The notes beneath the pieces are model-generated. The model did not search any database and had not been told where the DNA came from. It worked only from the letters and a program-made list of their open reading frames with translations. A stretch of DNA of 64,000 bases from an uncultured Muribaculaceae bacterium (GTDB taxonomy: Bacteria > Bacillota_I > Bacilli_A > RF39 > UBA660). A program made the translations under genes and the position numbers. The number at the start of each line of letters is the position of its first letter. The first letter of the stretch is position 1. Below, in pieces: positions 7,360 through 64,000 of this stretch. Location of the stretch: NCBI GenBank assembly GCA_964513435.1, contig CAZEMQ010000001.1:5883-69882 (forward strand), given 5' to 3'.

Positions 7360-7847
7360 TGAGCAAATCGTTTGTTTTAATAGGCGTAATAGCATGGTTA
7401 TCAATTTCAATATGGTTATCGGTTATTACATATAAAGTATATAATCTAACTCATAAACCAGTAAATATTGAATTTGAACTAAAACTCAATGATAATTCTG
7501 AGTTTATGAAAGATTGGGAAGCTAATGTCACCAATATGCTTGCAGCTTGTACATATTATGACATTAAATGTCCCAAGATAGTTACAGCACAAGCCATATT
7601 GGAATCTGGTAACTTCAAGTCTAATGTATTTAAAAAGTATAATAACCCTTTTGGACTTTATAATAGTAAAACAAAAGATTATTTTAAGTTTGAACATTGG
7701 ACTGACGCAGTAGTAGCTTATAAAAATATGATTCAATATCGTTATAAAGAAGGAGATTATTATATATTTTTAAAAAAAACACGATACGCAGAAGATCCTA
7801 ATTATATAAATAAAGTAAAAGCAATAGAAAACAGTTTAAAAATATGA
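7356..7847 (+). CDS. endolysin, glucosaminidase domain with N-terminal signal-anchor
   Basis: AQAILESGNFKS...NNPFGL matches the mannosyl-glycoprotein endo-beta-N-acetylglucosaminidase family; N-terminal TM helix. Confidence 0.6.
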   Translation: MMSKSFVLIGVIAWLSISIWLSVITYKVYNLTHKPVNIEFELKLNDNSEFMKDWEANVTNMLAACTYYDIKCPKIVTAQAILESGNFKSNVFKKYNNPFGLYNSKTKDYFKFEHWTDAVVAYKNMIQYRYKEGDYYIFLKKTRYAEDPNYINKVKAIENSLKI

Positions 7848-8641
7848 ATGAAAATGAAATAAAAGAACTTTAGTCTATTCTAGTAGAACAAGGATTATTA
7901 AAAGAAAATGATATTGATGGAATAATGGGTCCAAAAACTAATTCAGCATTAAAAGAATATTAGAAATATAGAATACAAAACGATAAAGGATTTATTAATA
8001 ATACATTTCCTTATGGGTATAGTGATGACGATGAAGATACTGTGTTAGGAGTTATAACTAAATTAGGTAAAGCAATATTTGGAAAATCTAATAAAAGAGA
8101 AAAATTAGATGAATTTGTGTTACTTGATTTAAGTACTCCAGAAGGTATTAAAAGAGCCAAAGAATTACGATATATTTTTAATGAAAATTTTAAGGATTAG
8201 AATTTACCATTATCTTATTTACAAAATTCTGCTAGAGCCAGATATGATTTAAATGCTTTATATCAAGGAAAACCATAGATATTTTACACATTTATGATAA
8301 ATCCTGATTATAAATCTGTTTCTGCCGGAGATAGTCCAACATATATTTATAGAAATCCTATACTTCGTAAATAGCTACAAAGTGAGGCCAGAAGTTATGG
8401 TAAAAAACATGGTATTGGCATACACAATGTAGTTGGAGATCCACTTACTACATTTAATAATTATACAATAAATACCATGCACGAAGATGGATCTGGTAGA
8501 GTAATAGATATTTGGGATTTTTCTGGAGATATGTTTAATCCTTTTAAACGTAAAGTTGTAATAGGAGATACTATTCCACCTACTGCACCTTTAAAAAATA
8601 ACATCTCAATAAGAAAATCAAAGAATTAGAAATCAAATTAA
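7844..8641 (+). CDS. TAG-recoded lysis-associated protein with peptidoglycan-binding domain (6 in-frame TAG)
   Basis: ATG overlaps the upstream TGA (ATGA). 266-codon frame interrupted only by TAG. DGIMGPKTNSALKEY[TAG]KY fits PG_binding_1 with Gln at the TAG position. Confidence 0.55.
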
Positions 8642-9663: not shown

Positions 9664-10455
9664 AAATTATCGGGGCTGACGGGTTTTGACAGCGATAATG
9701 ATATAAGTAAGACGTGTAGAGCGCGATCTCTTTAAACGAAGAAAAACAATAAATGCAAACTACAACAAAGTAAGAATGGCTGCCTAAGCAGCTGGCTCAG
9801 TTAATGATATGTTGAGTCGGGTTACAGGAGAGACCTAGAAACAGAAGAGGTGTGCAGAAGAAGGATTATAGAGCCACTGCACTTAACTTGAAAGCCAAAG
9901 GTTAGTAAAGCTGAATCTCCTACTATTGTCTTTAAACAGAAGGGATGTGTGCCTGCGTGGTTGACTCACCACAAACACTCGTTTTCTGCTTTAGCGTTAA
10001 AAAGTAGGTGACGGAAGGTGCTTCAACGGAGCCTTCTAGTTTCTCCAAACTATAAATGGAGTGGTAGATGTTGACTGTTCTAGTCAGTCCTAGTTTGTTA
10101 ATATCATATAACTAAATAAGCTGAACCTCAACAGTTAAAAATAGAGACACACGTTATCTTATTTATTAAATATTGTTGGACGAGGGTTTAATTACGGACC
10201 AGTTAGATGGTGACATCTAATTAAAAATATCGGATGAATTCAGGGAACGCTAAAAATAAAGCTCAGAATCAGCTTTATTCATGCCAATCCTGAGCTAAGC
10301 ACAAGGTACACCTTGTGAAAGTGCAACGACTACCGGAGAAGTTTAGCCTTCTTAATCACCGGCTTGAGCGTCCGACATCTCATTTTGAGATGATGATATA
10401 GTCTAATCTTCTTCGAAAGAAGTATAAGAACATTTTGCGATTCCCTCCAGCTCCA
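9664..10455 (+). ncRNA. ssrA: tmRNA (ssrA), interrupted in the T-loop by a group I intron
   Basis: 5' GGGGCUGACGGGUUUUGACAGCG is a tRNA-like domain start. The resume codon GCA sits ~90 nt in; tag ORF GCA AAC TAC AAC AAA GTA AGA ATG GCT GCC TAA (9755-9787, ANYNKVRMAA). The 3' end GAGGG-TT/CGATT-CCCTC-CAGCTCC-A forms a T-arm and acceptor stem complementary to the 5' end. Confidence 0.7.
10189..10437 (+). other. group I intron (ORF-less, ~249 nt) within the tmRNA T-loop
   Basis: Conserved P AATTCAGGGAAC, Q AATCCTGAGC, R GCAACGACTACC and S GATATAGTCTAA elements in canonical order. The intron ends in G and the upstream exon ends in U. Confidence 0.65.
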
Positions 10456-13081: not shown

Positions 13082-13154
13082 GCCTCTGTGATGTAATGGA
13101 TTAGCATATTTCTCTTCTAAAGAAATCGTTAGAGTTCGAATCTCTACAGAGGTA
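13082..13154 (+). tRNA. tRNA-Arg (anticodon UCU)
   Basis: Cloverleaf: acceptor GCCTCTG/CAGAGGT, anticodon stem TTTCT/AGAAA, loop CTTCTAA, T-arm TAGAG-TTCGAAT-CTCTA. Confidence 0.75.
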
Positions 13155-13190
13155 CTTATATGTTCTAATAAATATTAAAATATAACTTAA

Positions 13191-14353: not shown

Positions 14354-14439
14354 GCTGAGATGGCGGAATTGGTAGACGCATCAGAATTAAAATCTGATGG
14401 GCAGTAATGCCCGTGTGGGTTCGAGTCCCATTCCCAGTA
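14354..14439 (+). tRNA. tRNA-Leu (anticodon UAA), long variable arm
   Basis: GCTGAGA-TG-GCGGAATTGGTAGACGC...; anticodon loop ATTAAAA; T-arm GTGGGTTCGAGTCCCAT. Confidence 0.75.
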
Positions 14440-14456
14440 CTAATACTTAAAGAATT

Positions 14457-20274: not shown

Positions 20275-22619
20275 TTGAAGCGAATGAATAGAGATGAAAG
20301 ACAAACTTTATGTATTAAAAGATGGATAAACACTAAAGGACGCGCAAGCATTGTTGCAGCCACTGGATTTGGGAAGAGCTACGTTGGATTACGAATTATT
20401 CGAGGAATTATATCTAAGAAACGTGATTGCAAGGTTATAATTGTAGTTCCAACTATTACTTTAAAAGAGCAATGGACTAAATCAATTGATAAATGGGGAT
20501 TTACTCTTAATTGTGATATACAGGTTATAAATACTTCTATTAATAAAGAGCAAAATTGTGACTTATTAATAATTGATGAATGTCATACTGCGAATGCTGA
20601 TACTTTTAAACAAGTATTTGAAAAAATAAAGTATAGATGGATTCTTGGTCTTACAGCTACATTTGAGAGAATTGATGGTAAGCACGAAATATGCAGTAAG
20701 TATTGTCCAGTATGTGATACAATTTCAATAAATGAATGTTTAGAGAATGGTTGGGTTTCTCCTTTTAAGGAATATCAAGTTATTATTGATGTGGATGACA
20801 TTAATATTTATAAAGGATACAGTAAAGAATTTACTAAGTCTTTTGAATTTTTTGGGTTATGTGGCCCCTATTATTAGTAATAATAGAAAACCCTTTGAAA
20901 ATCTGAACCCCCATTTACATTTTGTTTTGTGTGTAAAATTTAGTAAATTTGTATTATAAATATTGACTAAATTTTAAAACTATGACTGAAAAAGAATTAG
21001 AAAAATTAAAAACATTAGAAAAATGGGAAACAGATAACCAAGGTTTAATTAAAGGAGATTGGAAATTACTAGAAGTATATAAAGAAATAAAAAAGCCTCA
21101 TCAAAAATATTGTATTATAGAATGTATTCATTGTGGTGAGACTAGATTAGTTTTGTATTACAATTTTCTAAAAAAAGAGTCCCCAAGACCATGTACTAAA
21201 TGTGGTGGAAAATGGATCACTTGGGGCAAATCTATGGTTGGCAAAATTGTAGGACATTATAAAATACTTAAATACATTGAGTGTATTAAAAGAATTTCTA
21301 ATAACAAGATAGATGTTTTCTTTAAAGTATAGTGTATATATTGTGGAGATATTAAAGAGAGAGAATTATATAACAAATCTAATTGGAATAGATATAAATT
21401 ATGTCCAAAATGTCCTAGAAGAAGAAACGATTATTATACTGTTAGATATAAAGAATATCAAAACGGAGCTAAATCTAGAAATTTAGCATGGAATCTTTCT
21501 TTAGAAGATTTTATTAAAATTAGTACTAGTAATTGTTTTTACTGTGGAGCAGAAGCCTAGGTACAAAATAGAGTACAACATGGTTGCTTAGTATCTTTAG
21601 AAGGAAATTTTAATGGAATTGACAGAGTAGATTCTAATTATGGATATACTGTAGATAACTGTGTTCCATGTTGTTCTCATTGTAATATGATGAAAATGCA
21701 CTATACAAAAGAAGAATTTTTATCTTAGATTTATAAAATATATCTTCATTCAATTAAACAAGGTCAAGAGACTATCGAAAACACATCTAATGATGGAAGT
21801 GAGTAGAGTACATTACAAGCTAATGGTAATGGAAGCGGAGGGTGTCCTATAAAGGATAATGAGATAGTCCAATCTATATAGTAATATATAGCAGTTCATA
21901 AGAGAACGTATATAACGTTGCGAGTTATATAGAATATAAATGTCGACTGGAACAAAGTAAATTCTTGTCTTGGTAAAGATGGATATAAATACCGTTATCA
22001 ACTAAGTAAGGAAATGTGTCCTAATGATGAGGAGAAAAGAAAAAACATGATGAAAAACATTACTTATCATGCAACTAACTTTATGCGTGTTCTTCAAGCT
22101 AGAAAATCATTTATCAATAATCATCCAAAGAAATTAGAAATAGCTAGAAAAATTATTGAAGCTAGACCTAATTCTAAAATTATTACTTTTAGTAATAGTA
22201 TAAAAATGGCTGAATCTATTGGAATAGGCCCTGTCTATTCTGGAAAAGATAGTAAGAAAAAAGGCAGAATTACGCTTGAAGAATATATTAATGGTAATTA
22301 TCAAGTTCTAAATACAATAAGAAAAGCAGATGCTGGTCTTGATATTCCGTCTATTTCTGTTGCTATAATTATAGGTACAGATAGTAGTAAAATTAGAGCA
22401 ATACAACGCCTTGGACGTACTTGTCGTTTTGAAGAAGACAAACGTGCTGAGATTTTTAACATCATTATTAATAATAGTGTGGAATTATCTTGGTTTGCTA
22501 ATTCACATCCAGATAATAACTATATTACAATAGACGAAAATGGACTTGATCAAGTCTTGAAAGGAGAAGAGCCTAAACTATATACTAAAAAGGTAAAGGA
22601 TTTTCAATTTAGATATTAA
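20275..22619 (+). CDS. SF2 (DEAD/DEAH-like) DNA helicase, interrupted: exon 1 20275..~20860, exon 2 ~21990..22619
   Basis: N part carries motif I ATGFGKS, motif II IIDECH and motif III LTATFER. C part carries motif V TIRKADAGLDIP and motif VI QRLGRTCR. A ~1.1-kb insertion lies between them. Confidence 0.6.
20861..21990 (+). mobile_element. putative group I intron carrying an HNH homing-endonuclease gene
   Basis: Splits the helicase. An R-like element TATTGACTAAA lies upstream of the HEG and an S-like element AATGAGATAGTCC downstream. Boundaries approximate. Confidence 0.5.
20982..21884 (+). CDS. HNH homing endonuclease, TAG-recoded (5 in-frame TAG)
   Basis: Track ORF 20982..21332 ends in TAG and the frame continues. 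CxxC...CxxC zinc ribbon, then NGIDRVDSNYGYTVDNCVPCCSHCNMMK as in the HNH_3 family. Confidence 0.6.
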
Positions 22620-22731
22620 ATTTATAACAAAATACCAGAACTTTTAAAGCCGTATGTAATTAATAAAGATTCGAGAGAATCATACACTATTGCAGTTTGT
22701 AGATATATTTAACTATATAACTATAAACTGA

Positions 22732-23349
22732 ATGTTAAATCTTACAACTAATTTAGAAAATGAAATCTCTTTATTAAAGAAGTATAAAATTACTTCTAAT
22801 GAATTAATGTTTATAAGAACTCTTCTTATTTTACAAGATGAGGAAAATGAGAACCTATTTAAAGATTATATAGAAAGTTTAAGAGAATGTAATATAAAGT
22901 TAAGAGATATATTAATTTCATTACAACAGAAAGGAATTATATTAAAAAGTTTTAAAATTCCAACGGAAGGAACAAGATTTAACCCACATGAAATACCAAT
23001 TAATAAAATATTTATAAAAACATTGTATAAAAGTTCTTTTAAACTCGGAAAAGAATTATTTGAAAAATATCCACAATCGTGCATTATAAATGGAAATATT
23101 GTCATGCTGAGATCAGTATCTAAACATTTTAATTCGTTAGAGGATTGTTATTATAGATATGGAAAAAACATCGGATGGAATGAAGAAAAACATAAAAAGA
23201 TAATAGAACTTCTAGAATGGGGTAAAGAAAATAATATAATTCAACAGTCATTATCATCATTTGTTATAAATAATGCTTGGTTAGATTTAGAAGCTATTAA
23301 AAATGGCAATTCTAGTAATTATAACTTTGAAAACATTAAGATGCTATGA
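22732..23349 (+). CDS. hypothetical protein
   Basis: ORF from the track. Confidence 0.3.
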   Translation: MLNLTTNLENEISLLKKYKITSNELMFIRTLLILQDEENENLFKDYIESLRECNIKLRDILISLQQKGIILKSFKIPTEGTRFNPHEIPINKIFIKTLYKSSFKLGKELFEKYPQSCIINGNIVMLRSVSKHFNSLEDCYYRYGKNIGWNEEKHKKIIELLEWGKENNIIQQSLSSFVINNAWLDLEAIKNGNSSNYNFENIKML

Positions 23350-24419
23350 TTACTGAGTCGTTAATAGAAGCTATCGACAGAGGACGTGAGGGGAAAGAAC
23401 AAGGTATTAGTATCGGACTACCAAAATTGGAACAATATATAGATGGAGTATGTAAAGGAGTATACACACTTACTATGGCTGAAAGTGGAGTAGGTAAATC
23501 CAGTTTTATGCTTTATTCTTATGTGTATAGACCTCTTATTGATCATTTGGATGATAATAAACTGCGAATAAGTATATTCTCATTAGAAATGAATGCAAAT
23601 ATGCTTATGGCTAAATTACTTTCTACTTATATATTTGAACATTATAATGTTAGATTAAGTATAAAACAATTATTATCTGTACAAAGAGGTTTTAGATTAA
23701 ATGACAATTGTTATAAAATTGTACAAGAGTGTATTCCTTGGATGAAAAAAGTTGAATCTGTACTTACCATCTATGATAAAAGTGCTACAGCAAACTTTAT
23801 ATATAAAAGTTTGTTAAATGAACTTAATAATAGAGGTAAGTTTATAGAAACTGAACATCGAAAAATATATATTCCGAATGATCCTAATTTAACCCATATT
23901 GTTATTGTTGATCATATTGGTAGAATTATGCCTAGTGCAGGTTCTACATTAAAACAAGAAATGGATTTAGCTTCTAAGTATTTATATTCTTTAAAAAATA
24001 GATGTAATATTACTCCTATTGTCATTCAACAGATGAATAGAAGTATTCAAAGCATGGATCGTAGGAAAGAATCAATGATAACACCTTTAACCTCGGATGC
24101 AAAGGATACTAATGCTACAATTGAAGATGCAGAATCAATATTAGCTATATTTTCTCCAGATAAAGCTAAACTTAGTACATATAAAGGATATGACATAAAA
24201 GAGTTAGGCGATTCGTTTAGAAGTATTCATGTATTGAAATCTAGATATGGTGAAGCTAATGTTGAAGATGCTGTTTACTACGATGGTAAATGTAACAAAT
24301 GGATTGAATTACCACGAGCTAATGAAATTAATGATTACGAAAAGTATAAAAATCCTAGATGGTATTTAGAAAAAGATAAAGAAGATAATGAAAAACAAAA
24401 TTTTGATTTTACAATATGA
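23346..24419 (+). CDS. DnaB-family replicative helicase (RecA-like domain)
   Basis: Walker A ESGVGKSSF, Walker B IVIVDHIG, arginine finger region. Confidence 0.55.
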   Translation: MITESLIEAIDRGREGKEQGISIGLPKLEQYIDGVCKGVYTLTMAESGVGKSSFMLYSYVYRPLIDHLDDNKLRISIFSLEMNANMLMAKLLSTYIFEHYNVRLSIKQLLSVQRGFRLNDNCYKIVQECIPWMKKVESVLTIYDKSATANFIYKSLLNELNNRGKFIETEHRKIYIPNDPNLTHIVIVDHIGRIMPSAGSTLKQEMDLASKYLYSLKNRCNITPIVIQQMNRSIQSMDRRKESMITPLTSDAKDTNATIEDAESILAIFSPDKAKLSTYKGYDIKELGDSFRSIHVLKSRYGEANVEDAVYYDGKCNKWIELPRANEINDYEKYKNPRWYLEKDKEDNEKQNFDFTI

Positions 24420-26670
24420 GTATAGTATTACCAAGTAAACCTATTCCTAGTGTTACACAAGATCCTAAGAATTTGATAATATATGGTATGCCAAAGATTA
24501 ATACTAGTCGAGCAGTTTAGGAATAAACTGTGTTAAATGGGCAAAAACGGTGAACCTCTTATATTTCTTTTTTAACATAATTTACCTACTATAATTCACT
24601 ATAAATATTTAAATTTGTATAATTAAATTTTTAATTATGCAAATAAATAGAAATAAGTATTCAATTGAATTTTATAACGAATGTGCGAAATATATTAATG
24701 AAGGACATTCGTTAAAGGAATGTGCAAATAAGTATAATATAAATTATACTACACTTAGATAGAATTTAACAAAATTAGGTCTAAGAAAACCCAATAGAGT
24801 AGGGAAGATTAATAAAACGGTTAGTTTTAATGAAAATTATTTTGATAATATAGATAATCATAATAAAGCATATTATCTAGGATTATTAATGTCTGACGGA
24901 TATATTTGCAAAACACCATATTCATTTCAAGTTGGAATTTCTTTACAAAAAGAAGATTCTTACATTTTAGAGAAATTAAAGGAAGAAATGAAATCTACTG
25001 CTAAAATATCTGAATATAAAAATTCTAATAAAATTGTATTTACAGGTAGTGAACATTTATTCAATGTGCTAAAATCTTATGGTTTTAGTGAAAATAAATC
25101 TCATAAAGATTATACAATTCCTAACATACCTAGACAATTTATTAATTCTTTTGTTAGAGGATATTTTGACGGAGATGGTTGTATTACTATTAAGTCTACT
25201 GGTTATGTTGTCATATCCATATGTTGTAATTCTAAAATATTTTTAGATTCTTTATGTAATGTATTAACTAATGAGTTTGATATTCCTGACATTAGAGTGA
25301 AACAAGAGCAAGGAAAAAGAAAAATCCATTATATGTTCTATATATTACAAAAAAGAGTAATCAACTATTGTTTAAAGACTTTATATATCAAAGTGATGAA
25401 ATAAAACTAATTAGAAAATATGAGAAATTTAAGAAAATACCGTGCTAACTTAAATAATTGCGAAAGGTATTTAAGTAGTGTAACGCGTAGTAGTTGAATA
25501 AATATAATACTGCCAAGAGTGTCCACATCCCAACTGAAATAAGTGGATGAAAATGTACGCTGAGCTGGTCTGAATTGACAGACGTATCTTTTTAAAAGTA
25601 TGAGAGAAATCTCCAGAATTTAGAGATAAAAAGCTCTAAAGATAACATAACTGTGGAAAGACAACCATTTTATCAACATTAGAAGATAATTTATTATTAG
25701 ATTTTGAAGATGGATCTGATTATGTAAATGCACTTAAAGTTAAAATACATAATCTTAATGAATTTGGAGAATTATGTAAAGCATTAAATGAATCTGAACA
25801 TAAATATAGATTCATTACAATTGATACAGTAACTGCATTGGAAGATTTTGTAAAACCATTGGCATTAAATATGTACAAAAAAACTCCTGCTGGAGCGGGA
25901 TATGTTGGCGATATTATAAATGCACCAATGGGAGCAGGCTATGGATTTATAAGACAGGCTATTGAATACGTAATAGACAAATTAGCATCATATACAACTA
26001 ATATTATATTAGTAGGACACGTAAAAGACAAAACTATTACTTCATTAGAAGGTAAGGAGCTAGGCTCTGTTAAAGATTTCGACTTAACTGGTAGAATGTT
26101 AAAATAATTTTGCCGTTCTTAAAAGTGATTTTAAGAATAATGACGGGGTAATATCGGAGAAGGCTAAAAATTGGATAGATTTACATAAAAATGTAGATTT
26201 CACAATTCATGCTAATTCCGAGATAAGTACAGAAACTAAAGAGTCTGTACCATCGTAACGCATAGGTATTGAATCTGAAAAATCAGAATATAATATACCC
26301 AAGAGTATCCCGCATCTTTCATATAAGATGAAAATATATGCTGAGCTGGTCTGAATTGACAGAAGGTAAGTTAATTACGGGTTAATTAACCATGAGAGAA
26401 ATCTCCAGAATTTAGAGATAAAAAACTCTAAAGATAACATAACTGAAAACAGGTCGAATATTAGCTAGTAAGAGCGATGCTATCGGGTTTGTGTATCGCG
26501 ATTCAGAGAGTAATTTATGTATTAATTTTGAAACTAATGGTATTGCTTCAGCGGGTGCGAGACCTGCACATTTAGCAAATAAAAAAATAGTTGTAGCAGA
26601 AAGACAGGAAGATGGAAGTTTTATTTCACATTGGGAAAGAATTTATCCAAGTCTTAAAAGTGATAAATAA
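24416..26670 (+). CDS. Sak4-like (AAA_24) recombination ATPase, three exons (24416..24498, 25654..~26092, 26446..26670)
   Basis: Spliced Walker A ...LIIYGMPKI|GKTTIL is reconstituted across intron 1. Exon 3 gives ...ARPAHLANKKIVV...; SSB gene downstream. Confidence 0.55.
24499..25653 (+). mobile_element. group I intron 1 in the Sak4-like gene, carrying a LAGLIDADG HEG
   Basis: Exon 1 ends in U and the intron ends in G. P-like AATAATTGCGAAAGG; 3' core shared with intron 2. Confidence 0.55.
24637..25404 (+). CDS. LAGLIDADG homing endonuclease with N-terminal HTH, TAG-recoded (TAG at 24760)
   Basis: LGLLMSDGY and RGYFDGDGCI are the two LAGLIDADG motifs. The frame is continuous from ATG 24637 through the TAG. 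Confidence 0.6.
26093..26445 (+). other. group I intron 2 in the Sak4-like gene (ORF-less)
   Basis: A ~170-bp 3' core near-identical to 25480..25653 (...ATGCTGAGCTGGTCTGAATTGACAGA...GAGAGAAATCTCCAGAATTTAGAGATAAAAA.CTCTAAAGATAACATAACTG). The 5' boundary is uncertain. Confidence 0.5.
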
Positions 26671-27254
26671 TGATTAAGGAAACGTTTACAGTAAAATTAA
26701 CTTATGAAATGTCGGTAGATTCTGACACTGGTAATATTATAGAAACAAAATTAATAAGTAGAGAAATAGATAACTCTGATATAAAACCAAAAACTTCTAA
26801 AAAGAAAATAGAAGATTCTGATACAGAACCTAAGTTATATATAGAAAATAATAAATATAGACTTAATAATGCTGCTATTAAATTAATGAATATTAATAGT
26901 GGTGATAAATTGTCTATAACTTATGAACAAGGAAAAAATGAAGTTTTCCCTATTATAGCACTAAGTGAGGTTTTAGGAGAACGAGATGGTAATAAATTAA
27001 CTAAATCTAATACTGTTATATTGAAAGGCGCAAAGTATGAAGCTCTTTCAAAATATGGTACAGAATTTACAATACTTACTCATCCAAACAAAGAGAATGT
27101 ATTCATACTAAATTCAGGGAAAATTCCAGAAGTTTTAGAAGGTGATGAAAATATATATGCTGAAGATGATATTTTCGATTTAGATATTAAAGATATGGTA
27201 GAAGATGAATCAGATATAACTGAAATTGATTCAAATTTTTTTAAACTAGACTAA
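26670..27254 (+). CDS. hypothetical acidic protein
   Basis: ORF from the track. Confidence 0.3.
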   Translation: MIKETFTVKLTYEMSVDSDTGNIIETKLISREIDNSDIKPKTSKKKIEDSDTEPKLYIENNKYRLNNAAIKLMNINSGDKLSITYEQGKNEVFPIIALSEVLGERDGNKLTKSNTVILKGAKYEALSKYGTEFTILTHPNKENVFILNSGKIPEVLEGDENIYAEDDIFDLDIKDMVEDESDITEIDSNFFKLD

Positions 27255-27257
27255 TTT

Positions 27258-27956
27258 ATGAGTGAATTTAATTTTTCGTTGGATAATGCACAAATTTCTT
27301 CAAAATCTGGTAATTATTTTAAATTTTATACTATTAACAAGATTAATAAAATTAGTGCCGAAATGGCTAACGGTACCACTTCTGACGGAAAAGAATGGAA
27401 AGCAGTAGATATTACTTTTAAAGGTGATGAAGGAGAGCATAGAGAAAGATATTTTATACCAGCTACTGTAGATGAAGGTGTTACCAGAGCTACTTTTGCC
27501 AATGGAGGTGAATCTCCATCGCCTTATGAAATATTGAAACAATTAGCTGTTCATGTTCTTGGAACTTATTCAACAGAAGCATACGATAAGTTTGTATTGT
27601 ATTGTAAGAAGATAAAAAATATGGATCAATTCGTTAGTGGATTTATAAAACTATTGAATGATGCGCCATCTAAAGAATTGTATTTAAAAGTAGTTGGTAA
27701 AAATTCTAAAGGAACTATATATGCAAAACTTCCAAAACCATGTGGTATTGAAAAAGATGCAGATGGAAATTTCACGGATAAAACTTTTCCTATTAACTTT
27801 TTAAGTGAAAAACCATTAACTTTTACTGCTTACGAAGAAAAAGAAAGAGCAAAATTAAGTAATGCTAAGCCAACTGAAATGGACTCAAATGTGGAAACGA
27901 ATACTGATACTAATGAAAATAATGATGATGAAGAAATAGATTTTAGTCTTTTATAA
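27258..27956 (+). CDS. single-stranded DNA-binding protein
   Basis: Acidic C-terminal tail DDEEIDFSLL resembles the SSB DDDIPF tip; position next to the annealing ATPase. Confidence 0.45.
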   Translation: MSEFNFSLDNAQISSKSGNYFKFYTINKINKISAEMANGTTSDGKEWKAVDITFKGDEGEHRERYFIPATVDEGVTRATFANGGESPSPYEILKQLAVHVLGTYSTEAYDKFVLYCKKIKNMDQFVSGFIKLLNDAPSKELYLKVVGKNSKGTIYAKLPKPCGIEKDADGNFTDKTFPINFLSEKPLTFTAYEEKERAKLSNAKPTEMDSNVETNTDTNENNDDEEIDFSLL

Positions 27957-27976
27957 TAAAATAAATCAAAACTTAT

Positions 27977-29011
27977 ATGGGTTTTGATTTTAAAATACAC
28001 CCTATACTTTCTTCCGAATATATATTGTCTAAAATTTCGGAAGAGAGTATATTTAGTTTTTATTTAGGAATCAGTTTGTATAAAAAAGGGTTATTCTGTA
28101 GTCCTTTACGTAATGATAAACACCCTACTTGTTCTATATATAGAAATAGAAAAGGTAAATTAATTTTTAAGGATTTTGGAACTGGACAATATTTGGATTG
28201 CTGGAATTTAGTAATGACTTTGTTTAATTGTAGTTATCATGAAGCATTAAAAATTATAGCAAAAGATTTCGGATTAACAAGTGAATCTGAAGTTAAAAGA
28301 AAAGCAGTTCCTACAAATATTAAAATAAAGAAAAATGAAATTGCTAAAATACAAGTTCAAATTAAAGATTTTTCTGATATAGAATTAAAATGGTGGAAAA
28401 AATATGGAATTACACTAGATATACTTAAAAAGTTTAACGTTTACTCATGTAAATATGTTTTTTTAAATGGTAATATCATATCTGAATCTAAACAACATTG
28501 TCCAATATATGGTTATTATGGAGGTAAAATAAATAAAAATGGTGAAAAAATTGAATTATGGAGATGTTATTTCCCAAAGAGAAAAGAATATAGATTTATT
28601 GGAAATTATCCGTCAAAGAAAATACAAGGTTATAATCAACTTCCTAAAAACGGAAAATTGTGTGTAATTACAAAAAGTATGAAAGATTGTTTATCAATGT
28701 ATTCTTGTGGAATAACAGCCATCGCACCATGTTCAGAAAATTCATTTATTTCGGATACGGTATTGAAAGATTTAAAAAAGAGATTTAAGTATATTGTGGT
28801 TTTTTACGATAACGATATTCCTGGAATCCTTAATATGAGAAAAATTAGAAAAAAATATCCAGAATTAAATTTTTTTTTCATACCTAAAAAATATGAAGCT
28901 AAGGATTTTTCTGACTTTTATGCAAAATATGGAAGAAAAAAAACTTTAGAAATGATTAAATATTATATTCAAGAATTAAAAATATCAGGAAATAAAAATC
29001 TTGAAAATTAA
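27977..29011 (+). CDS. DNA primase (zinc-binding N-terminus + TOPRIM)
   Basis: CSPLRNDKHPTCS zinc-finger-like segment; TOPRIM signature GKLCVITKSMKDCL...VFYDNDIPG. Confidence 0.5.
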   Translation: MGFDFKIHPILSSEYILSKISEESIFSFYLGISLYKKGLFCSPLRNDKHPTCSIYRNRKGKLIFKDFGTGQYLDCWNLVMTLFNCSYHEALKIIAKDFGLTSESEVKRKAVPTNIKIKKNEIAKIQVQIKDFSDIELKWWKKYGITLDILKKFNVYSCKYVFLNGNIISESKQHCPIYGYYGGKINKNGEKIELWRCYFPKRKEYRFIGNYPSKKIQGYNQLPKNGKLCVITKSMKDCLSMYSCGITAIAPCSENSFISDTVLKDLKKRFKYIVVFYDNDIPGILNMRKIRKKYPELNFFFIPKKYEAKDFSDFYAKYGRKKTLEMIKYYIQELKISGNKNLEN

Positions 29012-51133: not shown

Positions 51134-53673
51134 GATTGTTATTGTATATGATATAGAATTATTTCCCAATGTTTTTTATTGCACATTAAAAGAAACAGAA
51201 TCAAATAAAAATGTTTCATTAGAAATTTCAAATCGAAAAAACGACATACACAAAATAATTAATTTTTTTCATAGAGTTAAAACAAAAGTAAACTCTAGAA
51301 AAGAAATTAAAGATAAATATATATTTTGTGGATATAATAATATACACTACGATAATGTTATAATTAATTATATAATTGCTAATCGAGAACGATTAATAAA
51401 TTGTAATTATGCACAAATATGTGCTGAATTATTTGAATTAAGTAATCAAATTGTTAATTCTGGAGACGGTATTCAATCTTGGTATAAATGGAAACATCTT
51501 ATTTATTTTGACACTTTAGATTTACTCACAATGTTGTTTTCTCAAAAACTTAGAGTAGGTTTAAAATCTATGCAAGTAACAATGCAATATTCAAATGTTC
51601 AAGAATATGAAGGTGATTTCAGTAAACCATTACCAGATTCTGAAATTCCAAAGATGGCTGCATACAATATCAATGACGTTGAGAGTACAACAGAATTATT
51701 AAACAGATGTAAATCGGATATTGATTTAAGACTTAATATTGAAGAAGAATACAATATTGATGTTTTAAATAAAGATGGGGTGAATATTGGAATGCAAATT
51801 ATTGCACAAAAATATTTGGAAAAAACTAAATTAAAATGGAAAGATATTAAAGATTTACGAGATCCGTGTGATGTTATAGATCTTAATCAAATAATTTTAC
51901 CATTTATCAAATTTGATAATCCGATTTTACAAGATGTATTAATAGAACTTAAAAAACAAAAAGTATCTCCAGGTAGAAAAGGTTACGAACGACATTTTCT
52001 ACTAGATAATGTTGAATATACCATAGGAGTGGGTGGTATTCATAGTGTAAATACACCTGATATATTCAAATCTGATGAAAATTGGGTAATTTCAGATATT
52101 GATGTTGCGTTAATACATTGGCGCAAGTAAAACAAACTAAATTGCGGGAACATTCTTAGAGCTTTTGTTACCAACTTATAATAGTAATATATAAGGGCAA
52201 AACTAATCACTTTGATAAGGTAAAAAGACAAAAGATTGGATAATCCGCAGCCAAGTTACCTATTTTAGGTAAAAGGTTCACAGACTATTCCTTTATGGAA
52301 GTAGGGTATAAGTGACGTTTATATCCGAAAAAGTTTGAATTTATTTTGGGAGCTAGCATTACATACTTTTAGATAAAGACGAACTAGCCTTAAAAGGAAT
52401 GTATCAAAATAAATTATGATATAGTCGATAATGAGTCGAAAGATTCATACACACGAGTAAACGTCTTAGTGTGTGAGAAAAGCGATGTATCCCAGTCTTA
52501 TAATAGAACATAAATTTTATCCACCTCAATTAGGAGAAGCGTTTTTACATATTTATTCTAAAATTAGAGAAGAAAGAGTAGAAGCTAAACATAAAGGATT
52601 TAAAACAAAAGATGCTACATTGAAGTTAGCCTTAAACGGGTTGAATTTTCGTTTCAGCTCCTTCATCCAGGGATGGATGATGTAAACAAACCAAAATCGG
52701 TGAAAGTCTGGAATGATAATACCGAGGTAATTGTAGAAACTAAAGAGTCTACAACACCGTACAGCATAGAGACTGAACCTGATTAGTCAGAATAAAATGT
52801 CTCCACGAGTGGTTTGATCTAGAACAGAATAAAATATATGCGGATCTATAACGAATTAATAAGTTATAGAAGTATGGGATAAAAAACCTGTACGATAACA
52901 ACAATGTGAGTGGCATGCTTCAAAATGAGTATAGCTTTTGTTATTCTCCCATTACAGCTATGAAAGTTAGAATAAATGGACAATTAATGTTATTAATGTT
53001 AGCAGAACGGTTAATTAACATTGGTTGTAAGGTCTTAAACGCAAATACGGATGGAATCTTTGTATTAAGATCTCGTTCTGAAGAAAAAATGTTTCAACAG
53101 GTTTGTAGGGAATGGGAAAAATTAACCAAACTTACACTTGAAGAAGATAAATTTGAAGCCTTTTATCAATTTGCTATTAATGATTATCTTGCGATTAAAG
53201 AAGGATATAGTAAAACTAAAAATCCAAAACTATTAAAGAAAAAAGGATTATTTATAGATACTGTATCTTTAGGGAAAGGAATGAATGCAATAATTATTCC
53301 AGAGGCAATTAATAAATATCTTGCAGATAATATTCCGTTAAAAGAAACCATATATAATTGTAAAGATATTAGTAAATTTTTAACTTTTCAGAAAGTGGCA
53401 AAAACCTTTTCTGTGGAATATAATGGTAAATTAATTACTCATATAAATAGATATTATGTATCAACTGATGGGTATAGTCTTTATAAATGTAAAGTCAATA
53501 CAAAAGGAGAAAGAAGTGGATATATAAATATGTTAAAAGGATATGGAGTAACTATAACAAACAATCTTGATGAAATAAAAGAATTTCCGAATAACGTTAA
53601 TTATAATTATTATATCACAGAAGCTAATAAAATAATCACAAAACTTAAACAAAAACAGTTAAGTTTGTTTTAA
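51117..53673 (+). CDS. family-B DNA polymerase, three exons (51117..52110, 52483..~52640, ~52888..53673)
   Basis: Exo motifs YDIELFPN, YNNIHYDNV and YNINDVES. Spliced motif A DIDVA|SMYPSLII; motif B region KLALNG|LYD; DTDG motif C variant in exon 3. Confidence 0.6.
52111..52482 (+). other. group I intron (ORF-less, 372 nt) in the DNA polymerase
   Basis: P AAATTGCGGGAAC, Q AATCCGCAGCC, R GGTTCACAGACTAT and S ATGATATAGTCG are all near-consensus. Exon 1 ends in U, the intron ends in G, and splicing restores motif A. Confidence 0.7.
52641..52890 (+). other. second intervening sequence in the DNA polymerase (~250 nt, type unresolved)
   Basis: Exon 2 terminates at TAA 52683 after motif B begins. 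The exon 3 frame opens at ~52870 and completes motif B. Core intron elements are not clear. Confidence 0.35.
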
Positions 53674-60357: not shown

Positions 60358-63300
60358 TTATGTTCCAAATGTACCACCTTCTCTCTTAGTTCTAAACATA
60401 TCTGGTTTAATTGCATCTAATACAGGTTTAATCTATTTTAAACCTCCTGATGTTTTAACTATTCCATCCCAGAGATCTTCTTCACCTGTAAGAACTTTTA
60501 TACCTTGGTTAGTCATTCTAGCTCCCCATTCAAAAGAAAAAGGTGTCCATTGTCCAAGTGGTCCACCGATAGATTCTATCGCATTAAAATCCATAAATGA
60601 ATTTTTTACAGCCATTACAGCAATATTTGCAGCAGTAATACCTAGACCAGTAACAACATCTCTATTTTTTATATTATCTTCTTTTAATTCTTTTAACCAA
60701 TCTGCTAATAATGCACCGATTATTGATCCTCCTATCAACCACATTGTTAAATCATAACCAGCCTATTTTATGTTACTTCTGTATGCTCTTCTGAGGTTTT
60801 CATCCTGATTATTCCAAGTAGCATCCCAACCTTGTTTAAAAGATCCAGCATTTTTACTATTTATAACTAATTCCGCAAATGTAGCCATAATTCCTTCTTG
60901 CCAAAGCCCTTTCCACTACATTACAGGAGCTATAGTTTGCATTCCTCTTCTGATTATTTCATCTTCACTTAAAGGAGGTTCATTATAAAGGATATTACCA
61001 CTCTAGTCTACCTGATAGTAATATTTTACAGTTTTTCTTTCTCCTGTATTTCTATCAATTATTGTTTCAGTATAATGTTCCCAGTTTCCTCTAAGACGTA
61101 CACCTCCAGATTGTAAATACTAATTCTTTTTACCAGACCAATATGTTTTAAATTGCAACCACATACTTCCTGCTAATGTAGACATTATTAAGGATCTTTT
61201 TTCGTGAGAATAATATCCATAAATATCATCAGCAAGTGATTTCATACTTTCAGCTTCTTTATTAGTATATGCTCTAGGTAGAGGTTGTGGATTAGACATA
61301 TCTAATTTAAATAAAGTTCCGTCTTTGTTTCTGGTACGCTCTGCTTCAAATTGTTTTGCTACAGCGTAATATAACGATCTCTATTCGTTATACTTGGGAT
61401 CAGATACCCTACCGTTAGCAAATGCCTCAAATCTTTTATCCTTTTTCCAGTCGTATATCAACTCTCCTTTTTCATTTATATGATGCGCATAATAACAGCC
61501 ATCTCCTAACATCTAAGCAATAAAAATAGTCATTCTATTATAATAATCTGGTCTAGAAGCAAATTTAAATAACATATTTGTAAAATTCCAAATACCTTTT
61601 CTAGAAGTACTTATTTTATCCACATAAGTATTCATATCTATGTCATTTAATCCGAATAATTCATTAAATGCAGAACATAAAGTTGGAGTATCTGAAAAGT
61701 GACTTAAATCAGAATAAACTATCTTTAATGCTTTTTTGAAATTATTAAAAGTAAAAGAATCTTTTCCATCGGGTTTTCTAATCATTAAACTTATATCGAC
61801 CCATAATCCTTGTAAAGGCTAATAAATAGCTTGTACTGGAGCAAATGCTAAGGTAGCTTTTGATGCTGCGGATTTAATCAATCCTAGTTTGTTAGCAAGA
61901 CCTTGCAATTTTGGATCTACTATAGATTGATTAAAGATCTTATTTCTAATATAATTATTAATGTATTCCATATCTTTACTGAATACATTGTTCTATATAG
62001 ATCCTTGTGTTGCAAGATGAATCATAGCTGCTTTTATCATAGGAAATACTCCATCTACATTATCTTTTATAGAATATGCAAACAAGTGTTTATATAATAA
62101 TGTTTCTAGATTGTGTTCAAGATTTTCAATACCTAATGACTTAATTTTATCTAATCTTCGAGCTTCATTTTCTCCTCCATCAAATAAATTAGTCATAGTA
62201 AATAATATTTGTGAATCTTGCTAGTCACTAGTCTCAACTTCGGCATTGAAAATTCCCTCTAACTTTTCCCTAGCTTTTTTAAATGCAACAGATGGCATAA
62301 GATACCTTAATTTACCTTTTAATGCAGATAATAATCCTACTGTAGAAACCAATGAATCATCACTACCCCTAGCTAATGGAACTCGATAATATCTTACATC
62401 ATCTGTTTCTTTCATTTTCTAAAGCTCTTCATCTGTCATAAGGGGATACCTATTTTTATTTATCTTATATAGACAATACTCTAAAAATTCTCTTTCAGCT
62501 CCTTGTAACCTATTAGGATTTTTAAACATAAAATCTCCATCAGCTGTTACTTCTGTCATATTTTCATATAATGAAACTTGATTTCCTATCGTCCTTTCTT
62601 CTAACTTACCAAAACTTTTCTATCTTTTTAAGTTTCTTATTAGCCTAGTAATTTCCACTTTTTCTTTTTGCATTTCATCACGTACATTTTGATAAGCCTA
62701 CGTTGTAAGCTAAGTAACTAAATTTAAAGTTTCACTGTTCATGTTTCCTGGATTATCAAAATATGTTCCAGACCAACCATCTTTAAATATCATGATACTT
62801 TCAATCCATTTATCATGGTCAGACAACTACTGTCTAAATTTTATTCCATTAGCTTCAGCGATTGCAAATAAAATTGCATTATGTAAAGAAACTTCTTTGG
62901 AGTTTATTTCTGCTTGATTTGTGTATATTTTGTCTAGATAATTATATCCAGTTCTACTAGTTGTTACAGTGTTAAGTATTGATAATACTTTATTCAAAGC
63001 TGCTATTTTATCAGGAGCACTAGCATCTATATTTTCATCAAGAACTGTTCTACATTCTCTTAAAGATGATAATTTTCGATAACTATCTCTCCATCCATAA
63101 TTATCACCCTCTGTCATTATATGATCGAATAACATTCTACACTATTCGTACATTGTAGCAAATTTGATAGTTCCATCAGAAATCTTATTATTCTAAACTC
63201 TATGGTGTTTGTTTAACTCCGTCCAACAGTATAATAACTATTCATTTGTTACCAATAATCCATCACCAAATTTAGGATTAACTATACGTACATTACCAAC

Positions 63301-64000
63301 TGTATATCCTTCTATACCAGACATCTAATTAATTAGAAGTAATGTTTCCATTAATTCTATGTTCCCATTTACTGCTTCTAACATCATTGAATTAGATCTG
63401 GATTTTTGTGCAACATCGGGTTCATAAGATCCTGTTAATAAAGTTCTATTCTTCAATGGATTATCTTTACTTAGATATTTTCTATAATTAGTTTTTAAGT
63501 TATTAGTACTAACTCTAATAAAATCTATTTGTTTAGGATAAAATCCATCTTTTGTTTTTAATGTTAATATTCCGAATGATTCTAACAGTTCGTTATCTAA
63601 AATTTCCCAAGTTCCATTACAATACGGAGATAAGTTATCACGTAACCAATACATTTCTCTATCAGTAGATCTAAACTTAGGAGAAGGGAAGTCTACACTT
63701 TTTATTCCATTTTTTATAGCTTCGTTTATAGCACGCTTAATATCTGCTGTATATCTAAGTCTATTAGCAGGCTAACTTTGCATAAATTTTGTTACTTTCT
63801 AAACAAACTCAGGTTCTGAATTAGCTGTTATAGGACTACTACCATCAGATAAAGATAATGTGAATATATTATTTTCGTCAGGAGTCAATTTTTTCCACTG
63901 TTTAAGCATTTTAATTACTTCATCTTGTGTAATTTCACGAACAGATGAATAATCAGGAAACCATTCACTCATAATATCTTTAACTTGCTACGTAGCTTCT
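60358..64000 (-). CDS. very large TAG-recoded late/virion protein (partial, continues past the window end; possibly tape-measure or injection protein)
   Basis: One continuous minus-strand frame >1200 codons long. It is broken only by TAG (>20 in-frame, e.g. revcomp CTA at 60433, 60763, 60916, 61003, 61120, 61381, 61513, 61819, 61993, 62221, 62419, 62620, 62698, 62710, 62827). It ends with TAA at 60358-60360. The six minus-strand track ORFs are consecutive segments of it. Confidence 0.55.

Follow-up and report, generated by a model that had tools for sequence, protein, structure and literature searches.

Two related group I introns in the Sak4-like ATPase gene of a putative crAss-like phage

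Introduction

Group I introns have been reported in core genes (MCP, PolB and primase, as well as ATP_43b) of crAss-like phages of the Delta and Zeta groups (Yutin et al. 2021, PMC7886860). ATP_43b is an AAA-domain ATPase, the group I introns of which were reported in the Delta group; according to the same survey, TAG codes for glutamine, chiefly in late genes, and the open reading frames (ORFs) of introns can hold recoded stops (PMC7886860). Here, we consider a gene for a Sak4-like ATPase that is interrupted by two insertions, one of which carries the gene of a LAGLIDADG homing endonuclease, in a 64-kb stretch of DNA from contig CAZEMQ010000001.1. This stretch is called the window; all coordinates without prefix are window positions, and L-numbers designate related contigs and loci.

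The explanation that we find very probable, although short of certain, is that the pre-mRNA of the ATPase contains two group I introns that are spliced out, that the endonuclease encoded in the first of them is likely to be decaying, that the two introns belong to separate lineages of one family, and that the second has received the 3' terminal P9 domain of the first.

Results

Excision of two insertions restores a contiguous ATPase

The ATPase gene begins with an ATG at 24416, which overlaps the stop codon of the upstream DnaB-like helicase gene (ATGA). The frame of exon 1 runs to ...GGTATGCCAAAGAT and then meets a stop. When U24498 is joined to T25654, the two sides form the Walker A motif GMPKI/GKTT, where the slash marks the junction, and the frame of exon 2 runs to ...GACTTAACTGGT (U26092) and resumes at A26446. 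Excision of 24499-25653 and 26093-26445 yields a protein of 248 amino acids (aa) of the AAA_24/Sak4-like type. Pfam AAA_24 matches its residues 18-196 as one stretch across both junctions (96.5 bits with a cut-off of 27, E = 2.4e-27), and the product matches PHROG 124, 'Sak4-like ssDNA annealing protein', with E = 1.4e-25. A search of 5.8 billion proteins finds many uninterrupted homologues of 244-250 aa, the best with 86% identity, and among the homologues are proteins labelled Crassvirales. When the product is aligned with uninterrupted homologues of 246 aa, the identity is 81-86% and there is no gap at either junction; G174 and K175, which flank junction 2, are invariant among the homologues, and GMPKIGKTT and FITIDT are conserved.

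In a syntenic relative, L081 (SNF2 helicase, DnaB, AAA_24, primase), the ATPase gene is uninterrupted and both insertion sites are empty, and the blastn alignment of window and L081 DNA breaks at 24498/25655 and 26091/26437. A first-pass annotation, made from the letters of the window only, had put junction 1 at U24498, with an intron ending in G and the restoration of GMPKIGKTT, and had let the C-terminal part of the protein resume at 26446 after a second insertion. Both positions are exact, as judged from the joined frame and from the empty sites in L081; the further proposal that the three exons make up a contiguous AAA_24/Sak4-like protein agrees with the gapless alignment to the family and with the Pfam match spanning both junctions.

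By its likeness to Sak4, the window ATPase has a putative annealing activity. GenBank records of crAss-like phages label its homologues variously as RecA, Sak4-like or nucleotide-binding, and a sequence search of PDB with the spliced ATPase returned nothing meaningful, i.e., no solved structure is detectable by sequence. In the favoured reading, the source of the window would be an AT-rich, crAss-like (Crassvirales-related) phage. The nearest GenBank relatives of the ATPase are crAss-like phages with about 40% identity, and a megablast search of 22700-29000 against GenBank phages gave a single match of 33 nucleotides (nt) only.

Both insertions have the anatomy of group I introns

From 5' to 3', both insertions contain, with P for paired and J for joining segments, a GNRA-capped P2, P3, a J3/4 of four A/U, P4 followed by GAA, P5, P6 and a J6/7 ending in AAC. 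They continue with P7, which is GCGUA/UACGC or GCAUA/UAUGC, and with a hairpin placed between it and the 3' strand of P3 (P3'). The conserved CCAAGAGU, P3' and P8 come next, and after them a J8/7 rich in purines (GAAAAUR), P7' (the 3' strand of P7), the P9 hairpins and a terminal G (Table 1). The proposed helices are fully paired in both cases, save for one mismatch in P5 of intron 1 and one in the first P9 hairpin of intron 2. Compensatory changes in P1, P2, P7.1 and the last P9 hairpin set intron 1 apart from the orthologue that L085 has at this site. For intron 2, the minimum free energy fold computed without constraints (z = -5.2) contains P1-P6 and P8 as well as the P7.1-like hairpin and the final hairpin of P9.

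The introns belong to a family that can be followed from its 3' end. A search of IMG/VR with a pattern of a loop AUAAAAAR, a 7-nt stem and GAUAACA..AAYUG leads to 76 viral loci with 32 distinct 3' domains; the ...AAYUG end is common to all 76, and the 7-nt stem is complementary in every one of them in spite of differing sequences. An exact search of IMG/VR with the 5' end of intron 2 (AGAATGTTAAAATAATTTTGCCG) gave no matches. Nineteen family members were aligned (alignment A4). In P6, P7, the P7.1-like hairpin and the P9 helices 97% of the cells are paired, 25 of the 30 pairs change on both sides, and the covariation score is 0.772, compared with at most 0.196 in controls where the partners were slid by 1-3 columns. 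Against the family profile, introns 1 and 2 score with E = 3e-34 and 4e-37, respectively (nhmmer).

For P3, the long-range helix that forms the pseudoknot with P7, the 6 nt that precede J3/4-P4 pair perfectly (6/6) with the 6 nt that follow CCAMGAGN in 10 of 14 introns, with 12 distinct strands, while perfect pairing is found in 5.8% of the cases when partners are swapped between introns. P4 is paired in all five positions in 12 of the 14, with four versions of the strand, and in the covarying 5-bp hairpin between the 5' strand of P7 and CCAMGAGU-P3' four of the five pairs change on both sides. All 19 sequences open P7 with a G-C pair and close J6/7 with AAC or AGA, while the rest of P7 lies off the usual consensus. 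In one family member, L029, the P7 positions are taken by R/S elements of the canonical form, CAACGACUAG...AAGAUAUAGUC, which ties the family to canonical group I introns. An earlier assignment of GCGUA/UACGC as 'P3' was dropped, since the R/S elements of L029 stand there and since the true P3, upstream of P4 and pairing after CCAMGAGU, covaries.

From their predicted structures the two insertions are, then, group I introns of an IA-like family, as the first-pass annotation had claimed in calling them related group I introns: the U·G pair of P1, the terminal G, P1-P9 with the P3/P7 pseudoknot and the covariation in the family all speak for it. The hairpin between P7 and P3' we take to be equivalent to the P7.1/P7.2 of the td and Twort structures, and the assignment to subgroup IA presumes the same equivalence. 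In the Rfam alignment of the intron at 10180, an insertion occurs at the same place between P7 and P3'. In phages of Mammaliicoccus, Bacillus and Clostridioides, blastn finds loci that are weakly similar to the core of the family. A group II intron, considered jointly with an intein and with separate fragments, was ruled out on size, stops in all frames and absent starts, and inteins are precluded by the stops that the insertions hold in all frames.

Table 1. Positions of the exons, the two introns with their proposed helices, and the endonuclease gene (window coordinates; a slash within a sequence marks the splice site)
Feature	Position	Strand	Remarks
Exon 1	24416..24498	+	27 2/3 codons; ends at U24498 in the middle of Walker A; aligns to residues 1-28 of uninterrupted homologues
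Intron 1	24499..25653	+	group I, IA-like, 1155 nt; terminal G25653
Intron 1 P1	24496-24500/24505-24509	+	GAU/UA pairs with UAGUC; U24498·G24507
Intron 1 P2	24513-24519/24524-24530	+	GGAA loop
Intron 1 P3	24538-24542/25521-25525	+	
Intron 1 P4	24547-24551/25439-25443	+	
Intron 1 P5	24557-24568/25423-25434	+	closes the loop that holds the ORF
LAGLIDADG homing-endonuclease gene	24637..25448	+	in loop L5 of intron 1; in-frame TAG 24760-24762; 1-nt deletion in A run 25320-25324
Intron 1 P6	25448-25456/25468-25476	+	
Intron 1 P7	25485-25489/25556-25560	+	
Intron 1 P7.1-like hairpin	25490-25494/25509-25513	+	
Intron 1 P8	25526-25530/25545-25549	+	
Intron 1 extended P9 domain	25561-25640	+	hairpins 25568-25583, 25588-25598, 25602-25613 (GAAA loop), 25619-25640
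Exon 2	25654..26092	+	residues 29-174, including Walker B ...FITIDTV; ends at U26092; aligns to L081 3086-3521
Intron 2	26093..26445	+	group I, family of intron 1, 353 nt, without ORF; terminal G26445
Intron 2 P1	26089-26097/26107-26115	+	UGGU/AGAAU pairs with AUUUUGCCG; U26092·G26112
Intron 2 P2	26116-26124/26129-26137	+	GUGA loop
Intron 2 P3	26144-26149/26307-26312	+	
Intron 2 P4	26154-26158/26217-26221	+	
Intron 2 P5	26169-26173/26203-26207	+	
Intron 2 P5a	26177-26186/26191-26200	+	
Intron 2 P6	26227-26233/26244-26250	+	
Intron 2 P7	26260-26264/26337-26341	+	
Intron 2 P7.1-like hairpin	26265-26269/26295-26299	+	inner stem 26274-26278/26283-26287
Intron 2 P8	26313-26318/26325-26330	+	
Intron 2 P9 domain	26342-26432	+	of the intron 1 type
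Exon 3	26446..26670	+	residues 175-248 and TAA at 26668-26670; aligns to L081 from about 3512 on

The endonuclease gene of intron 1 has an in-frame TAG and a frameshift

In frame 0, the endonuclease ORF passes a TAG at 24760-24762 and continues to a stop at 25404, and its last 30 residues do not look like those of a LAGLIDADG protein. The -1 frame, entered at about 25314, reads ...NPLYVLYITKKSNQLLFKDFIYQSDEIKLIRKYEKFKKIPC, followed by a stop, and reaches the TAA at 25446-25448. Where L085 has GGAAAAAGAAAAAATCC, the window has GGAAAAAGAAAAATCC, that is, one A has been lost and a run of six A has become a run of five (A5). Because of this deletion the 44 conserved codons at the end lie in the -1 frame, the homologous reading frame stops at 25448 instead of 25404, and the corrected end overlaps the 3' strands of P5 and P4. 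The frame-corrected protein of 270 aa matches phrog_4645 from end to end (E = 3e-43) as well as Pfam LAGLIDADG_3 (E = 8.8e-13), and it aligns to intact homologues of 265-270 aa reading ...EQGKRKNPLYVLY.... Both LAGLIDADG domains are thus present, in an ORF that the TAG and the 1-nt deletion interrupt. The gene had been described at first as complete with one in-frame TAG; the TAG is there, and the completeness is contradicted by the deletion in the A run, seen by comparison with L085. Contig L080 (SRR7039262_2236, from run SRR7039262) matches the 3463 nt of window positions 22000-25462 with 100% identity and has both the TAG and the deletion.

How the TAG is read can be approached from a late gene of the same genome. 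A minus-strand ORF at 60358-63999, which runs off the end of the window, is 1213 codons long; TAA and TGA are absent from it, and TAG occurs in frame 22 times. The alignment of its homologues covers three invariant Gln columns (FRQ-Q-L, AIY-Q-P and FIA-Q-M), in each of which the window has TAG, and the remaining TAGs fall on variable E/K/L/Q columns. In at least one late gene TAG is therefore most likely read as sense, and most likely as Gln, as judged from these columns. In the endonuclease itself, the TAG falls on a variable column (Q, S, T, C, Y, I, K) where Gln is commonest (5 of 13), and read-through to Gln appears plausible there. Hence, of the first-pass description of the endonuclease as recoded, the recoding of TAG at the level of the genome is supported by the late ORF and its 22 TAGs, the recoding of the endonuclease itself is plausible only, and 'complete, recoded' was too generous for a frameshifted gene.

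Two further plus-strand frames, 20967-21884 and 7814-8641, give ORFs of 305 and 275 codons only when their TAGs (five and six, respectively) are read through. The former lies between fragments of a helicase gene (20275-20877 and 22014-22619), and may be another ORF of a mobile element.

The endonuclease would once have moved intron 1 into empty alleles. Its expression from the present sequence would need both read-through of the TAG and a -1 shift in the A5 run, and because both are needed the endonuclease is most likely inactive or decaying, made at best in trace amounts late in infection. The alternative that survives best, to which we give a limited but real chance, is that the endonuclease is functional and deliberately gated: TAG would be read as Gln by a late suppressor tRNA, the ribosome would slip by -1 on A-AAA-A, and the product would be late and scarce. 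The sense reading of TAG in a late gene and the prevalence of Gln at the aligned position are in line with this; the slip on the A5 run restores the conserved ...GKRK-NPLYVLY... exactly, the 44 codons downstream are free of stops and, judged by eye, conserved to much the same degree as the remainder of the protein, and recoded stops in intron ORFs of crAss-like phages are on record (PMC7886860). However, the site of the shift is not a canonical slippery heptamer X XXY YYZ, the variability of the TAG column leaves room for a nonsense mutation, and a single recent deletion accounts for the same data more simply.

A more elaborate form, which we regard as improbable, adds a second layer of regulation: the endonuclease would be alive but doubly gated, by late reading of TAG as Gln and by the -1 slip on A5, and the near-identical 3' ends of the two introns would allow regulated skipping of exon 2. 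If this were true, homing would be confined to trace amounts late in infection, and the out-of-frame product of exon 1 and exon 3 would tune the output of the ATPase. As to skipping as such, a joining of 24498 to 26446 is conceivable with the near-identical intron 3' ends, and would give a product of 83 + 225 nt that is out of frame; precedent for such skipping where a gene holds two group I introns has been mentioned (PMC10136302).

The two introns are probably separate lineages that share a 3' domain

Both insertions end in ...CTCTAAAGATAACATAACTG, as had been noted in the first pass, where the similarity was taken to be near-identity over about 170 bp and the second intron to be a duplicate of the first within the gene. 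The common end is there. The identity of the 3' parts is, however, 78% over 165 nt, and near-identity is limited to the last 54 nt (98%) and a block of 37 nt (95%).

To see where intron 2 belongs, consider its parts one by one. The 5' part is 81% identical to that of the site-2 intron of L102 and 55% identical to that of intron 1. The core is 74-82% identical to the cores of the introns in L102, L101 and the helicase gene of L085 (81-82% for L101 and L085), compared with 66% for intron 1. After P7' the order is reversed: the identity is 49-51% with the site-2 orthologues, which have a short domain of 57-59 nt, and 84% with intron 1. The orthologue of intron 1 in L085 also has the long P9 domain, with 85% identity.

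The distribution among relatives has the same tendency. L084-86 and L089 have an intron at site 1 only; L101 has the site-2 intron together with one at another site, between residues 36 and 45; L102 (51-67% protein identity) has a site-1 intron with an intact LAGLIDADG gene and an ORF-less site-2 intron; and orthologues at sites 1 and 2 occur in relatives down to 51-67% protein identity. In L082 and L083 the gene is interrupted at yet another site, SDAIG/F, by a different group I intron, of canonical type. Counted over the clade, the ATPase gene thus has no fewer than four insertion sites. Such presence and absence among relatives fits what is expected for mobile introns.

Most likely, then, the two introns would be separate, long-resident and site-specific lineages of one family rather than the outcome of a duplication within the gene, and intron 2 has probably received the P9 domain of intron 1 in place of its own, by recombination between copies about 0.8 kb apart. 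Since only the region after P7' in intron 2 resembles intron 1, a swap of the 3' domain is the simplest reading. The competing view is that intron 2 is a copy of intron 1 that moved about 0.8 kb downstream and then lost its endonuclease ORF. In its favour are the membership of both introns in one family and the similarity at the 3' end quantified above. Yet upstream of P7' the two introns are no closer than unrelated members of the family, intron 2 has its nearest kin in the 5' part and core in other genomes, and relatives with 51-67% identity already hold separate introns at the two sites, with 3' domains that are short and dissimilar. With site-specific orthologues in distant relatives and nothing but the 3' P9 domain in common, duplication within the gene is rejected as very improbable.

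The introns at further sites of the ATPase gene are found at 3571-4647 in L082 (after SDAIG, canonical group I, with an ORF of 305 aa), 1898-3000 in L098/L099 and 1633-3000 in L101. Outside this gene, an intron of the same family lies at about 60-341 of L085, in a gene for an SNF2-type helicase, with a core 82% identical to that of intron 2, and at 1695-2822 of L084 a DnaB gene is interrupted by a LAGLIDADG_2 ORF. From these placements in L085 and L084 follows that family members occupy different replication genes in different genomes.

Proposed splicing

In the mechanism that we propose, the ATPase gene would be transcribed as one pre-mRNA with two group I introns. Each intron would fold into a group I core, with the U·G pair of P1 at the cleavage site, a P4-P6 domain, the P3-P8/P7 pseudoknot, a further hairpin that lies between P7 and P3' like that of subgroup IA phage introns, and GNRA-capped peripheral helices, and would be excised by guanosine-initiated transesterification in two steps. 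Ligation of exons 1, 2 and 3 would then give the mRNA for the 248-aa ATPase.

A different outcome follows if the ORF-less intron 2 no longer splices, in which case the ATPase gene would be a pseudogene or would give a truncated product of 178 aa ending in ...DLTGRMLK. Intron 2 is without maturase or endonuclease, its splicing is deduced from the sequence, and its chimeric 3' domain could disturb the folding. Against this, its core helices are all intact and it carries every family-invariant nucleotide of alignment A4, the long P9 domain accompanies other cores of the family (intron 1, L085 and L003), the frame of exon 3 is open with conserved residues that match those of uninterrupted homologues, and site-2 introns are kept in distant relatives. 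Loss of splicing is, if anything, still less credible than a duplication. Assembly from separate polypeptides is known for split genes of phages, but for the idea that three fragments are translated separately and assemble here, or that the insertions are removed at the level of DNA or protein, there is nothing specific in support. Neither exon 2 nor exon 3 has a start codon or a context for ribosome binding at its 5' end, the cut in Walker A falls between codon positions, and the insertions have a full group I fold and stops in all frames, hence are no inteins; the idea can practically be discarded.

Other introns in the window

A search of the window with alignment A4 (nhmmer) finds only three copies of the family. 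The third lies in the gene for a family-B DNA polymerase, which is also split by two introns, at about 52116-52485 and about 52642-52906 (plus strand). The intron at about 52642-52906 is the family member (nhmmer E = 7e-34), and in its central part 98 nt align to the matching stretch of intron 2 with 75.5% identity. The intron at about 52116-52485 looks canonical (UUGCGGGAA...AAUCCGCAGC...GUUCACAGACUA...AUGAUAUAGUC) and is unreported by Rfam.

At 9672-10455 (plus strand), a phage-encoded transfer-messenger RNA (tmRNA) gene is interrupted in its T-loop by a canonical group I intron. Rfam gives 46.1 bits for tmRNA at 9679-10194 (gathering threshold 47) and 95.4 bits for Intron_gpI at 10180-10425. 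The acceptor stem is formed by GGGGCUG (9672-9678) and CAGCUCC (10447-10453), the third pair being G·U; GAGGG/CCCUC makes up the T stem, and the tag frame at 9756-9788 encodes ANYNKVRMAA followed by a stop. ARAGORN does not report the tmRNA at 9672-10455.

Discussion

Several observations weigh against the proposed explanation. P7 is GCRUA/UAYGC and not the common GACUA/UAGUC, although the first G-C pair is kept. The Rfam model RF00028 has no match to either intron, neither at the gathering threshold over the whole window nor at E <= 10 over 24380-26720, while it does match the window intron at 10180-10425 (95.4 bits). The splicing of both introns is something that we infer from sequence. With regard to TAG, there is no suppressor tRNA in the 64-kb window, where the only tRNAs are tRNA-Arg(TCT) at 13082-13155 and tRNA-Leu(TAA) at 14354-14440. 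The sample behind L080 may, finally, be the same or a related one, which makes the frameshift in the A5 run reproducible with its independence unproven. The silence of Rfam is not taken against the group I identity, because the anatomy and the covariation are clear and because the model misses also the canonical-looking group I intron at about 52.1-52.5 kb; according to a recent survey, Rfam and GISSD models miss phage variants of group I introns (PMC11878797).

For annotation, the consequences are practical. Gene callers give the ATPase as fragments of 34, 89 and 59 aa together with a truncated endonuclease, and exact splice sites restore a conserved replication/recombination protein. ORF-less introns of a widespread phage family escape protein-domain screens as well as Rfam, and the 3' motif ATAAAAAR-N7-GATAACA-N1-2-AAYTG together with alignment A4 is a practical means to find them. 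Probably, ORF-less introns are systematically under-annotated in crAss-like genomes, the present family being invisible to Rfam yet widespread in gut phages. As for the turnover of introns, at least four insertion sites in one small gene and the exchange of a peripheral RNA domain between neighbours make up a compact example of modular recombination.

Comparison with known systems

Like Sak4-type annealing ATPases (AAA_24, PHROG 124), the window protein is built as one RecA-like core (about 250 aa) that has GMPKIGKTT as Walker A and FITID as Walker B, and its gene sits in a replication module beside the genes for DnaB and primase. A literature search on Sak4 combined with introns found nothing relevant.

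Among group I introns, the closest counterparts are those of T4 td, nrdB and sunY and of orf142 in Staphylococcus phage Twort (IA2-type), with which the window introns share the U·G pair at the 5' splice site, the terminal G, P1-P9 and the P3/P7 pseudoknot. With the IA phage introns (td, Twort) they further have in common the context 'AAC-G...' of J6/7-P7, an ORF in a peripheral loop and, at the position of P7.1/P7.2 in td, the extra hairpin between P7 and P3'; with Twort orf142 they share the occurrence of several related introns within one gene. The window family differs from these introns in the P7 of most of its members (GCRUA/UAYGC, where theirs is GACUA/UAGUC), in its own CCAMGAGU segment before P3', in a terminal hairpin with the loop GAUAAAAAGC, in the tail GAUAACAnnAAYUG and in the lack of a match to RF00028.

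The system described by Yutin et al. (PMC7886860) has the gene class ATP_43b, the phage assemblage, the LAGLIDADG ORFs in introns and the late reading of TAG as Gln in common with the window. That survey found introns by way of the protein domains of their endonucleases, and the ORF-less intron 2, the RNA structures, the splice sites and the exchange of the 3' domain are absent from it. The present case is a well-resolved instance of a known phenomenon, and it leaves the understanding of group I introns and of crAss-like phages unchanged. Its novelty goes no further than the exact structures, a second intron without ORF and the swap of the 3' domain, together with the practical point that a widespread family of introns is invisible to Rfam.

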